Of a DNA stretch of 33,631 nucleotides, positions 13,464 to 15,886 are shown in pieces. Each line of letters opens with the position of its first letter. Position 1 is the stretch's first letter. Source of the DNA: a virus. The position numbers and the translations under genes were made by a program. The stretch lies in UHGV virus genome UHGV-0020097, one strand, 5' to 3'. The notes under the pieces were generated by a model, which made no database searches, was not told the DNA's origin, and was given only the letters and a program-made list of their open reading frames with translations.

Positions 13464-13483
13464 CGGCCCGGTTTTCCGGGCCG
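13464..13483. other. Perfect hairpin CGGCCCGG-TTTT-CCGGGCCG between small terminase and the methyltransferase gene
   Basis: 8-bp GC-rich stem, 4-nt loop; no strong downstream T-tract, so terminator function is uncertain. Confidence 0.3.
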
Positions 13484-13503
13484 TCTGATATTCGGGATTT
13501 GTA

Positions 13504-14244
13504 ATGCAAAAACAGATTATTGGTAACGCAACGTTGTATTGCGGTGATGTTCTTGATGTGCTGCCGGCGTTATCTGAACGTTTTGATGCCGTCATTACCG
13601 ACCCGCCTTACAGCAGTGGTGGCACACACAAATCAGACCGCAGCATGGCCCCTTCGGACAAGTATGTCGGTCACACCCAGTATGCCGAGTTCAGCGGGGA
13701 TAACCGCGACCAGCGCAGCTGGGCGTTCTGGTGTTCCATGTGGATTTCTCATGCATTGCACAGGCTGAATCCCGGCGGTTATTTCATGGTGTTCAGTGAC
13801 TGGCGACAACTACCAGCGCTTACCGATGCATTTCAGGCCGGTGGTGTGCTGTGGCGTGGTCTGGTTGTCTGGGATAAAACGCAGGCTTCCCGTGCGCCAC
13901 ACACCGGCTATTTCCGGCATCAGGCAGAGTATGTGGTCTGGGGCAGCAACGGAAAACTCGACAAATGCCCGCACGGTGGCCCGTTCCCGGGTGTGATTAC
14001 GCAGCGTGTTGTCCCGTCTGAAAAACTGCACATGACCGCAAAGCCGGTTCAGCTGATGGCCGAGCTGGTTAAACCGCTGGCACCGGATGCGCACGTCCTC
14101 GATCCGTTTATGGGAAGCGGCACCACCGCCATCCCTGTACTTGCCCGTGGCGGACGGTTTACCGGCATTGAAATGACTAACCAGTATTTTGATATCGCCT
14201 GCGCACGTCTCGAAAAAGCGCAGGCAGAAGCAGCGCAGGTGTGA
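13504..14244 (+). CDS. DNA methyltransferase, beta-class amino-methyltransferase (N6-adenine or N4-cytosine; DPPY suggests N6-adenine)
   Basis: 246 aa; catalytic motif IV VITDPPYSS near the N-terminus and AdoMet motif I DPFMGSGTT near the C-terminus, the circularly permuted beta-class order. No adjacent nuclease ORF. Confidence 0.85.
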   Translation: MQKQIIGNATLYCGDVLDVLPALSERFDAVITDPPYSSGGTHKSDRSMAPSDKYVGHTQYAEFSGDNRDQRSWAFWCSMWISHALHRLNPGGYFMVFSDWRQLPALTDAFQAGGVLWRGLVVWDKTQASRAPHTGYFRHQAEYVVWGSNGKLDKCPHGGPFPGVITQRVVPSEKLHMTAKPVQLMAELVKPLAPDAHVLDPFMGSGTTAIPVLARGGRFTGIEMTNQYFDIACARLEKAQAEAAQV

Positions 14245-15886
14245 CGTGGCAAAACGTAAACTTTCCATTAAAGAGTTTCAGAGAAGCTTACAGGAGTACA
14301 TCGCCAACCTCCGCCAGACCATTGAGGCTGAATGTCTGGGGTTCGATGTAAACCCGCAGGCCACACAGGCCCGCCGGGCGGCAGTCTGTGACCCGGTGAC
14401 GGGCTACGATTATTTTGTCGAAAACTATTTCCCGCACTACGTCCGCAACCCGGCAAAAAGCGAGCTGCATAAATACCTGTTCAGCCGTCTGCCACAGGTT
14501 GTGGCAAGCCCGGACCCGGAGAACGACGCCATCGCCGCGCCCCGTGGTGAAGCAAAATCCACGCTGGTGACTCAGCTGTTTACCCTGTGGACCATTATCC
14601 GGGCCATTAAGCATTACCCGGTCATCATTATGGACAGTATCGACCAGGCTTATCCGATGCTGGAAGCCATCAAGGCTGAACTGGAATTTAACCCCCGTTT
14701 AAAAAACGATTTCCCGGAGGTGTGCGGGCAGGGTCGCGTCTGGCGTATGGGGACCATCGTCACGGCCAACAATATCAAGGTGACCGTTGCCGGTAGTGGT
14801 AAAAAACTGCGTGGTCTGCGCCACGGTCCGTACCGTCCTGACCTGGTCATCCTCGACGATATCGAGAACGACGAGATGGTGCGTAACCCGGAGCAGCGCG
14901 ACAAGCTGCATGACTGGCTCACCAAAACCGTGATGCCGCTGGGTGAGGCTGGCGGTAAAACCGATATTATTTATATCGGAACCATCCTGCATTACGACTC
15001 CGTGCTGTCGCGCACACTCAATAACCCGATGTGGAAAACAGCCCGCTTTAAGGCTGTTATTCAGTGGCCTGCCAACATGAAACTGTGGGACGAGTGGGAA
15101 GAACTCATCCGCAACAAACAGCCGGAAGCAGCGGAGGCACTTTACCGACAGAACGAAGCCGACATGCTCGCCGGGTCGGTGGTGTCATGGGCGGCGCGTC
15201 CCCTGCTGGCGCTGATGAAAATCCGTGTCCGTGACGGTCATGACACCTTTGATTCTGAATACCAGAACGACCCGGTCAGCGGTGAAGATGCGCTGTTTGC
15301 GGGCTGCATTAAGTTCTGGGTTAACCGTCTTGATGAATGGGTGTTTTATGGTGCTGTTGACCCCAGTCTCGGGAAGAAGAATAAAAACCGCGACCCGTCG
15401 GCCATTCTCGTGGGGGGCTTTAACCGTTTTACCGGCATTCTGGATGTGGTTGAAGCCGATATCCGCCGACGCCTGCCAAATAAACTTATCGAAGACGTGA
15501 TTAAGTATCAGCGGGAATACCACTGTCTGTGCTGGTCGTTTGAGTCCGTCCAGTTTCAGGAGTTTCTGCGCACCGTGCTGGTTGAGCGTTCGGCGGCGCT
15601 GGGCGTTCCGGTTCCGGCGCTGCCGGTCATCCCGCTGGAGGATAAAGCGCTGCGTATCGAATCCCTTCAGCCGCATATGGCCAACGGCCTGATCCGCATC
15701 AGTCCGGCACATCAGACGCTGATTGACCAGCTGCGCCACTACCCCAAAGCCGACCACGATGATGGCCCGGACTGTCTGCACATGCTGTGGACGCTGGCGG
15801 TATCGCGTAGCGCAAAATTTCAGATACACACCCCACGCAGCACCGGGCGTGACCGTGGCGGGCGTTTTGGTTCAGGAGGATGGTAA
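14189..15886 (+). CDS. Terminase large subunit (Mu gp28-like)
   Basis: 565 aa if started at the tracked ATG, which overlaps the methyltransferase by 56 nt; a GTG at 14246 overlapping its stop is an alternative start. Confidence 0.8.
   Translation: MISPAHVSKKRRQKQRRCDVAKRKLSIKEFQRSLQEYIANLRQTIEAECLGFDVNPQATQARRAAVCDPVTGYDYFVENYFPHYVRNPAKSELHKYLFSRLPQVVASPDPENDAIAAPRGEAKSTLVTQLFTLWTIIRAIKHYPVIIMDSIDQAYPMLEAIKAELEFNPRLKNDFPEVCGQGRVWRMGTIVTANNIKVTVAGSGKKLRGLRHGPYRPDLVILDDIENDEMVRNPEQRDKLHDWLTKTVMPLGEAGGKTDIIYIGTILHYDSVLSRTLNNPMWKTARFKAVIQWPANMKLWDEWEELIRNKQPEAAEALYRQNEADMLAGSVVSWAARPLLALMKIRVRDGHDTFDSEYQNDPVSGEDALFAGCIKFWVNRLDEWVFYGAVDPSLGKKNKNRDPSAILVGGFNRFTGILDVVEADIRRRLPNKLIEDVIKYQREYHCLCWSFESVQFQEFLRTVLVERSAALGVPVPALPVIPLEDKALRIESLQPHMANGLIRISPAHQTLIDQLRHYPKADHDDGPDCLHMLWTLAVSRSAKFQIHTPRSTGRDRGGRFGSGGW

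Follow-up and report, generated by a model that had tools for sequence, protein, structure and literature searches.

The DNA analysed here (the window, i.e. the whole 33,631-nt stretch of virus genome UHGV-0020097) is a Mu-like prophage of E. coli. Between a gene for a DUF1804 protein and terL, the gene of the terminase large subunit, it carries an open reading frame for a solitary DNA methyltransferase (Table 1). Profile matches to both flanking genes bear out this placement, which a preliminary description of the sequence had proposed; the upstream neighbour belongs to the family of Mu gp27, which the Mu record lists as terminase small subunit. The same description held that Mu has no gene in this slot, and indeed only 7 nt, with no gene, separate the end of gp27 of Mu (12891) from the start of gp28 (12899).

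Table 1. Features of the methyltransferase locus (positions in the window)
Feature	Coordinates	Strand	Basis and remarks
DUF1804 protein, Mu gp27 family, small-terminase-like; upstream neighbour	12957..13457	+	PF08822, 2.8e-52; phrog_756
Perfect 8-bp G/C hairpin after the DUF1804 gene	13464..13483	+	Backbone element, outside the cassette
Gene-sized cassette, present or absent between near-identical prophages	~13494..14236	+	Alignment; boundaries good to about 10 nt
Likely ribosome-binding site of the methyltransferase, GGGA, 6 nt before the ATG	13494..13497	+	Inspection of the sequence; putative
Solitary beta-class DNA amino-methyltransferase, coding sequence	13504..14244	+	ORF list; 246 aa, stop included
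Motif IV, DPPY (residues 33-36), catalytic	13600..13611	+	Read from the sequence; TDPPYSSG invariant in 27 homologues
Motif I, DPFMGSGTT (residues 200-208), AdoMet-binding FxGxG	14101..14127	+	Read from the sequence; LDPFMGS invariant in 27 homologues
Terminase large subunit (terL), true start GTG 14246	14246..15886	+	phrog_38, 3.5e-143; TIGR01630; RefSeq start

The methyltransferase frame is real. As anticipated in the preliminary description, a profile search assigned its product to AdoMet-dependent methyltransferase families: PF01555 (86.5 bits against a gathering cut-off of 26.7, E = 3.2e-24) and phrog_67 (1.4e-54), to which the PADLOC model MTase_II (1.5e-65) can be added. Motif IV lies N-terminal to motif I, i.e. 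in the permuted beta-class order, (D/S)PP(Y/F) before FxGxG, that had been read from the ORF beforehand and that the 27 homologues share; the FMGSG core of motif I (residues 202-206) falls in a segment that aligns with motif I of M1.HpyAVI. Conservation is not confined to the AdoMet pocket: strikingly invariant regions are also found outside it, such as RAPHTGYFRHQ-EY-WGS among members that are 57-93% identical. As judged from profile, predicted fold and context, the 246-aa product thus belongs to the AdoMet-dependent DNA amino-methyltransferases of the beta class, and it is intact and conserved. It is an ordinary phage DNA methyltransferase, and one already annotated: RefSeq correctly names the 99%-identical gene 'DNA-methyltransferase', a label that the gene bears in 36 of 5,426 complete E. 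coli genomes.

The AlphaFold2 model of the protein (pLDDT 82, pTM 0.83), compared with the PDB by Foldseek, displays a Rossmann-like fold of the AdoMet-dependent methyltransferase type. The top 45 matches are all beta-class DNA methyltransferases, among them CcrM, M.BceJIV, M1.HpyAVI, MboIIA and RsrI (1e-15 to 1e-9), and M1.HpyAVI is also matched in sequence (5e-15, residues 24-236). The DPPY motif and the adenine-specific relatives favour the N6 of adenine, which is most likely the target as far as sequence and model can tell. These matches do not settle base specificity, since both PF01555 and the fold matches include N4-cytosine enzymes; the rotifer N4C enzyme (8s9m) and M.PvuII score similarly to the adenine enzymes in the fold comparison. 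That the protein methylates cytosine at N4, with the same anti-restriction role, is nevertheless quite unlikely. Beta-class N4C enzymes typically carry SPPY or SPPF, where the window protein has DPPY; its best sequence and fold matches (M1.HpyAVI, M.BceJIV and CcrM) are adenine enzymes; and both the 53%-identical gene bpm of Bordetella phage BPP-1 and the homologues named by JGI are annotated as adenine-specific. Our literature search found no methylome study of a strain carrying this prophage (e.g. E2348/69, in which the 1.5-kb region surrounding the gene is present at 96.6% identity).

The methyltransferase gene is tightly packed among the lysis and packaging genes and shares their orientation. 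The 46-nt gap upstream of it holds no ORF, and a promoter scan of positions 10344-16000 found no sigma-70-like site. At its other end, the stop codon (TGA, 14242-14244) is separated by a single base from the GTG start of terL, the likely ribosome-binding site of which (AGG, 14237-14239) lies within the final methyltransferase codons. This spacing is conserved. A 56-nt overlap between the two genes had been reported in the preliminary description; it arises only if the first in-frame TTG (14189) is taken as the terL start, and is an artefact of choosing the longest ORF. Indeed, the RefSeq start corresponds to the GTG at 14246, and the GTG, the AGG before it and the N-terminal MAKRK persist in E. 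coli prophages that lack the methyltransferase, where no ORF starting at the upstream TTG is possible, as well as in the Yersinia, Citrobacter and Limnobaculum relatives. The sequence AGGTGTGAC-GTG-GCAAAACG around the start is likewise present in the methyltransferase-less prophages and in other genera.

The hairpin that precedes the gene exists as first described, with an all-G/C stem (CGGCCCGG-TTTT-CCGGGCCG), but the tie to the methyltransferase that its mention implied did not hold: it is unchanged in the methyltransferase-less alleles of the 19 E. coli genomes that carry a near-identical prophage. It belongs to the prophage backbone and has no specific link with the methyltransferase. The window contains no other all-GC perfect 8-bp hairpin, and the 76-nt stretch around this one has a fold energy of -25.7 kcal/mol (z = -3.5 relative to shuffled sequences). 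Yersinia, Citrobacter and Enterobacter retain a related GGCCCGG/CCGGGCC hairpin, the outer pair being T:A instead of C:G in Yersinia; Limnobaculum lacks it. We rejected the idea that the window hairpin is an intrinsic terminator of canonical type or an RNA element of a known family: the window has no Rfam match, and the terminator scan did not call the hairpin because the window copy lacks a T-run. In Citrobacter and Enterobacter a T-run does follow, and in these two relatives the hairpin resembles an intrinsic terminator; it might reduce read-through into the methyltransferase gene and terL.

The methyltransferase gene comes and goes as a cassette exactly one gene long. A presence/absence comparison of related E. 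coli prophages, proposed in the preliminary description, found it in 36 of 55 and missing from the other 19. In the methyltransferase-less alleles, the cassette is replaced by 8 bp (TGTATACC), while the flanks, including the hairpin and AGGTGTGAC-GTG, are shared and match the window at 97.5-99.2%. The gene is therefore dispensable. Simple deletion was rejected as the origin of the methyltransferase-less allele, the junction containing 4-8 bp that are absent from the gene-bearing allele; a recent foreign insertion marked by composition was rejected as well, the GC content of the gene (0.52-0.58) matching that of its flanks. The same gene occupies the same slot in prophages of Yersinia, Citrobacter, Enterobacter and Limnobaculum, that is, in five genera with E. 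coli, and its divergence across genera tracks that of the neighbouring genes, which indicates an old resident of the lineage and not a recent arrival. The word 'inserted' used in the preliminary description is thus apt for the clean presence/absence pattern within E. coli and misleading as to age: this is an accessory, gene-sized cassette in an Enterobacterales lineage of Mu-like prophages, and its absence from some E. coli alleles may reflect loss or replacement by recombination.

Absence from 19 of the 55 related E. coli prophages is what might be seen with a decaying passenger gene devoid of current function. This explanation is extremely improbable: the reading frame is intact, the catalytic motifs are all invariant in the 27 homologues, the slot is kept in five genera and the dN/dS ratio relative to the genes of the other genera is 0.05-0.11. 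The gene is under purifying selection.

The gene also stands alone, as had been surmised. Its neighbours encode DUF1804, TerL, portal, endolysin and holins; neither an endonuclease gene nor any ORF of defence type lies close by, the small neighbouring ORFs have no PADLOC match, and the cognate endonuclease of a Type II restriction-modification system is absent from the locus. One alternative casts the protein as the methylating component of a restriction-modification or other defence system whose second member has escaped recognition in the prophage; its expression in the lysogen would keep other phages out. Prophages often bear defence cargo near late genes, and the best PADLOC matches are to models named MTase_II. 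Such a role is highly improbable given that the surrounding ORFs are all lysis, packaging or head genes or tiny ORFs without a defence match, that the variable cassette is a single gene, that no promoter-like site of its own precedes it, and that in eleven other contexts no second gene except Com travels with the family.

These other contexts also bear on function. A megablast search of deposited phage genomes returned no near-identical phage. In a scan of a genome collection with the family alignment, the matches listed were mostly remote relatives (24-60% identity), and their loci showed no match to other proteins of the window prophage except a weak MuF-like one, which adjoins a 49%-identical homologue (L019). 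Homologues sit at a holin/endolysin joint, at a prophage end under Com, or beside portal or tail-sheath genes, and in all eleven contexts examined no conserved second gene accompanied the methyltransferase apart from Com. Two loci were sampled from a class of weaker matches spanning about 189 genomes. In a Serratia Mu-like prophage, a homologue of 61% identity lies at the right end, past the tail-fibre genes, where Mu has mom; in P2-like prophages of E. coli, a Com zinc-ribbon gene (PF10122, 9.5e-12) overlaps a 55%-identical homologue from upstream, an arrangement that mirrors com-mom of Mu. The presumed protective function gains support from these two placements, one matching that of mom and the other following a Com gene.

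The position of the gene directly beside the terminase genes invites another explanation, in which the enzyme would serve the phage cycle as an epigenetic regulator, its methylation of specific sites timing late transcription, packaging or transposition. Precedents exist: Dam methylation acts on P1 pac cleavage and on Mu mom transcription, and CcrM methylation acts similarly in the cell cycle. The lack of a partner endonuclease fits such a role, as does the structural comparison, in which the regulatory orphan CcrM ranks first, followed by the regulator M.BceJIV. At 21-23% identity, however, these two matches reflect only the common beta-class core; terminase linkage is not conserved, the family occurring elsewhere at unrelated positions; and no essential step can depend on an enzyme that near-identical prophages do without. 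We consider a regulatory role unlikely.

Anti-restriction self-methylation is the function that we infer to be best supported. In our preferred interpretation, to which we give a probability of about 0.7, the enzyme methylates the phage's own DNA late in the cycle, most likely at adenine, and thereby provides a Mom-like shield against host restriction. Having no sigma-70-like promoter of its own, the gene would be read along with the lysis and packaging genes; the missing promoter, the co-orientation with these genes and the coupling of its stop codon to the terL start make it most likely that the protein is produced from the late transcript and only late in lytic growth. By analogy with other beta-class enzymes, it is probably dimeric. 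Amplified phage DNA would be methylated before headful packaging, so that the progeny would carry modified DNA into the next cell, where it would resist systems that cut the unmodified site. The methyltransferase would in effect do the job of Mom in Mu, and a close complete relative, the prophage of strain AH19B041, has neither com nor mom, its last genes being those of the tail fibre (the absence of mom is known from this relative only, since the window stops short of its prophage's right end).

More broadly, and with considerable doubt, the family may serve many Mu-like and P2-like phages as a portable anti-restriction module, expressed late and replacing Mom in its role, that settles at permissive late joints (DUF1804/TerL, holin/endolysin or the prophage end) and has sometimes come under the Com switch. 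The invariant regions outside the pocket would fit one shared adenine specificity, perhaps very short or relaxed, which, if true, would confer broad protection. Solitary phage methyltransferases that shield phage DNA from restriction are textbook knowledge, and beyond correct annotation the gene has little significance of its own. The near-identical prophage pairs with and without it nonetheless constitute a natural experiment on its contribution to host range, and the pairing of Com with a methyltransferase in P2-like prophages suggests that the Com switch of Mu governs more than Mom.

Among known systems, com-mom of Mu resembles the window gene in the role that we propose. Mom itself is not a methyltransferase and produces N6-carbamoylmethyl-adenine. 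The Mu system is a late, translationally controlled adenine modification of phage DNA that blocks host restriction. It differs from the window gene in location, mom lying at the genome end whereas the window gene lies inside the late lysis/packaging string and has no Com gene. The profile search matched the window protein to methyltransferase-type families only and to no Mom family; neither Mom homology nor an upstream Com gene, which together mark a com-mom module, is present. Com (PF10122) was found only upstream of the paralogous copies in P2-like prophages.

The small, structurally characterized beta-class N6-adenine enzymes M1.HpyAVI (PDB 5HEK/5HFJ), M.BceJIV (8URK) and CcrM (6PBD) have the fold and motif order of the window protein (Foldseek 1e-15 to 1e-14; query-normalised TM 0.64-0.74), and the sizes of HpyAVI and BceJIV (232-283 aa) are similar to its 246 aa. 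They are, by contrast, chromosomal restriction-modification or regulatory enzymes, and their recognition sequences are not transferable to the window protein because identity is only 21-23%.

Bpm of the Bordetella phages BPP-1, BMP-1 and BIP-1 is among the closest homologues in deposited phage genomes (53% identity, 94% coverage), and it is likewise a solitary phage gene product of equal size and beta-class layout. Its phages are podoviruses and not Mu-like, and its gene lies outside the terminase slot. Liu et al. reportedly described an unusual site specificity for Bpm in 2004. In our search, the BMP-1 and BIP-1 matches were split in two pieces; frameshifts in bpm arise from a homopolymeric G tract (PMC4791379), and the window gene has no such tract. 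The longest homopolymer of the latter is AAAAA, and phase variation of the bpm type was rejected.

Finally, M.EcoGII and M.EcoGI share with the window gene the order DPPY then FxGxG of the beta class, the lack of a partner and an E. coli prophage origin, M.EcoGII being longer (349 aa as opposed to 246 aa; this comparison is one of length and description). Both are non-specific adenine methyltransferases that are silent in the lysogen, and the M.EcoGII study makes the case that prophage methyltransferases stay silent in the lysogen until induction turns them on (PMC5778455).

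The window is a Mu-like prophage: its left part encodes a Mu-type transposase and a MuB-like ATPase, followed by GemA and Mor family genes; its middle part encodes two holins, a GH108 endolysin, DUF1804 (the small-terminase-like Mu gp27 family), the methyltransferase (MTase) and TerL; beyond terL lie the genes for a Mu-type portal, MuF, a protease, the major head protein, sheath, tape measure and baseplate. A prophage of E. coli strain AH19B041 is 98.8% identical to the window over the 1.5 kb that surrounds the MTase gene, and among 5,426 complete E. coli genomes, 55 carry close copies of this region. 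The first ~100 bases of the window look like host flank. Just inside the apparent left prophage end, upstream of a repressor-like gene, ATTCTGGGCGGA occurs twice, and these copies are probably transposase-binding repeats. On the strand opposite the major head protein region there is a 429-aa ORF. This long reading frame, in GC-rich coding sequence, is most likely spurious; RefSeq has no annotation there in the related record.

On every sequence-testable feature, the 246-aa ORF is a beta-class amino-methyltransferase of the PF01555 family. Motif IV lies N-terminal to motif I, which is the permuted order of the beta class, as the preliminary description had recognized. The protein matches Pfam PF01555 (N6_N4_Mtase; 86.5 bits for a threshold of 26.7), PHROG 67 ("DNA methyltransferase", 1.4e-54) and, over the whole model length, the PADLOC Type II methyltransferase model (1.5e-65), and among solved structures, M1.HpyAVI of Helicobacter pylori is the closest to it in sequence (5e-15, residues 24-236). 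An AlphaFold2 model based on 27 homologues (pLDDT 82, pTM 0.83) matched the PDB structures of CcrM, M.BceJIV, M1.HpyAVI, MboIIA, RsrI and PvuII (1e-15 to 1e-9). Since both the fold and the profiles are those of methyltransferases, the identification stands. The target base is more likely to be adenine than cytosine, judging from the DPPY motif, the nearest characterised relatives, which are adenine enzymes, and bpm of Bordetella phage BPP-1, 53% identical to the MTase and annotated as an adenine methyltransferase; N4-cytosine specificity, which the Pfam family also covers, seems unlikely on sequence alone.

TDPPYSSG and LDPFMGS are invariant across the 27 homologues (56-93% identity), as are further blocks, e.g. 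R-PH-GY-RHQ-EY--WGS, and dN/dS is 0.05-0.11 when the gene is compared with its copies in Yersinia, Citrobacter, Enterobacter and Limnobaculum, rough values given that dS is near saturation. Purifying selection on the gene is clear from these comparisons. The MTase gene is genuine and looks functional; that it is a decaying passenger, dispensable as it is, would be most surprising. The commonest E. coli variant (P0001, 440 member sequences) is 93% identical to the window copy, with differences almost confined to one block (WAYWSTPWMSGAARLVRPGGYVMVF..PTMTDVFQ against WAFWCSMWISHALHRLNPGGYFMVF..PALTDAFQ), which suggests a recombination patch within the gene.

The preliminary description had the gene inserted at a site where Mu has none. 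The latter point is borne out, the end of gp27 and the start of gp28 being only 7 nt apart in Mu. "Inserted" fits the clean, gene-sized presence/absence observed among 55 related E. coli prophages, 36 of which carry the MTase while 19 (eight of them in near-clonal isolates from one study) lack it, 8 bp replacing the gene between closely similar flanks, but it does not fit the wider distribution. Indeed, the same slot holds the MTase in prophages of four other genera, with identities for MTase, DUF1804 and TerL, respectively, of 80, 86 and 92% (Yersinia), 80, 77 and 82% (Citrobacter), 74, 75 and 82% (Enterobacter) and 68, 61 and 79% (Limnobaculum). Because the slot is kept, the MTase has diverged about as much as its neighbours and its GC content matches the flanks, these data argue that the gene has long been resident in this prophage lineage. 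The MTase-less alleles may have arisen by loss or by recombinant replacement; their junction is not what would be left if the sequence as it now stands had simply been deleted. Such naturally occurring alleles with and without the gene are a mildly interesting by-product.

Two MTase-less loci (L009 and L010) encode an M15 peptidase endolysin where the window has a GH108 lysozyme, while their holins (99-100%), DUF1804 (identical) and TerL (>99%) are essentially unchanged, showing that the lysis module and these phages are mosaic. In Mu-like prophages, the joint between DUF1804 and TerL seems to tolerate accessory genes. Other small ORFs occupy this interval in Salmonella, where one is on the opposite strand, and in Enterobacter.

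The MTase-less alleles also settle where terL starts. A 56-nt overlap with the MTase gene had been proposed, the ORF lister having taken the first in-frame start, TTG 14189. The RefSeq start is the GTG equivalent to 14246, downstream of the MTase stop, and the 19 genomes lacking the MTase have, in near-identical flanks, AGGTGTGAC-GTG-GCAAAACGTAAA directly after the hairpin that follows DUF1804. As this arrangement is kept where the MTase is missing, the upstream TTG cannot start terL, and the proposed overlap does not exist. GTG followed by Ala-Lys codons is likewise found just past the MTase stop in Yersinia, Citrobacter and Limnobaculum.

The hairpin itself is as perfect as described, and the window has no other perfect 8-bp hairpin made up of G and C only; the 76-nt stretch around the stem folds at -25.7 kcal/mol (z = -3.5 versus shuffles). 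Its implied link with the MTase does not hold: it is unchanged in the MTase-less alleles and therefore lies outside the MTase unit. Yersinia (outer pair C:G to T:A), Citrobacter and Enterobacter have a related GGCCCGG/CCGGGCC hairpin after DUF1804, which in the latter two is followed by a T-run in the manner of an intrinsic terminator; Limnobaculum lacks the hairpin. The window hairpin has no T-run and was not called by the terminator scan. We read it as a backbone element ending the DUF1804 gene, one that may terminate transcription weakly or stabilise the transcript.

Coordinates of the features (window positions unless a locus is named)
Feature	Position	Strand	Remarks
ATTCTGGGCGGA copies	about 113-124; 188-199		within 100-200
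Repressor-like gene	409-1071	-	
GH108 lysozyme gene	12006-12551		
Hairpin	13464-13483		CGGCCCGG-TTTT-CCGGGCCG, perfect stem
Segment replaced in MTase-less alleles	about 13494-14236		8 bp instead (TGTATACC)
MTase ORF	13504-14244	+	246 aa
Motif IV DPPY	residues 33-36		sequence reading
Motif I DPFMGSGTT	residues 200-208		sequence reading
Variant block	13711-13830		residues 70-109
Likely terL ribosome-binding site	14237-14239		AGG, within last MTase codons
MTase/terL junction	14242-14246	+	TGA 14242-14244, one base, GTG 14246
Antisense ORF	21113-22402	-	429 aa
M15 endolysin gene	L009:758-1135; L010:759-1136		MTase-less E. coli loci
DUF1804-TerL interval	L005:6529-7717; L097:3243-3711		Salmonella; Enterobacter
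Com-MTase modules	L100:2526-3474; L101:2526-3459		E. coli P2-like prophage ends, adjoining ogr and Hok/Gef toxin gene
Phage Chuche module	L008:5778-6720		
Acyltransferase gene	L012:2792-3307	-	Serratia

Members of the family are also found at other sites. A 62%-identical copy lies in the holin/endolysin interval of Salmonella Mu-like prophages, and a 56%-identical one in the same interval of a different kind of E. coli prophage; in P2-like elements, a member adjoins the portal gene (Delftia) or lies between invertase and tail sheath genes. In a Serratia Mu-like prophage, a 61%-identical copy is at the right end, past the tail-fibre genes, which is the position of mom in Mu. There, a hexapeptide-repeat acyltransferase gene (PF00132, 1e-18) separates a tail-fibre assembly gene from the MTase homologue; by sequence, it may be cargo, a serotype-converting O-antigen acetylase. 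The window ends before the right end of its own prophage; in the complete related prophage of AH19B041, tail-fibre genes come last, with no com or mom. Finally, the end of E. coli P2-like prophages also holds a copy (55% identical in the copy sampled; two loci drawn from a weaker-match class of about 189 E. coli genomes), and phage Chuche is arranged in the same way. A small gene for a Com zinc ribbon (PF10122, 9.5e-12, above threshold) extends into the start of this P2-like copy, mirroring the com-mom layout of Mu with the MTase replacing Mom. These modules are a further mildly interesting by-product.

The window thus contains an intact, conserved and solitary beta-class MTase gene in the late gene string, abutting terL. 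As had been claimed, there is no partner endonuclease, and none travels with the homologues in eleven other contexts; it is very unlikely that the MTase, despite its PADLOC match, belongs to a hidden defence system. After induction, the gene would most likely be transcribed together with the lysis and packaging genes (there are no sigma-70-like sites between 10344 and 16000), and the enzyme would methylate replicated phage DNA ahead of packaging, so that in the next host this DNA would resist restriction enzymes with the modified base in their recognition sites. Protective methylation is supported by the dispensability of the gene, the lack of a nuclease partner in the eleven contexts and the homologues found where Mu has mom and behind a Com gene; other prophage methyltransferases behave likewise (PMC5778455). 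A regulatory role in the phage cycle, which a solitary methyltransferase could also play, is unlikely.

The MTase is an ordinary phage methyltransferase, already named correctly in public annotation ("DNA-methyltransferase" for the AH19B041 gene in RefSeq). It was rejected as half of a Type II restriction-modification pair, the endonuclease being absent. It lacks a homopolymer tract prone to frameshifts such as bpm is reported to have (PMC4791379), and at 246 aa it is shorter than the non-specific M.EcoGII (349 aa). Although unrelated to Mom, it probably does a similar job.
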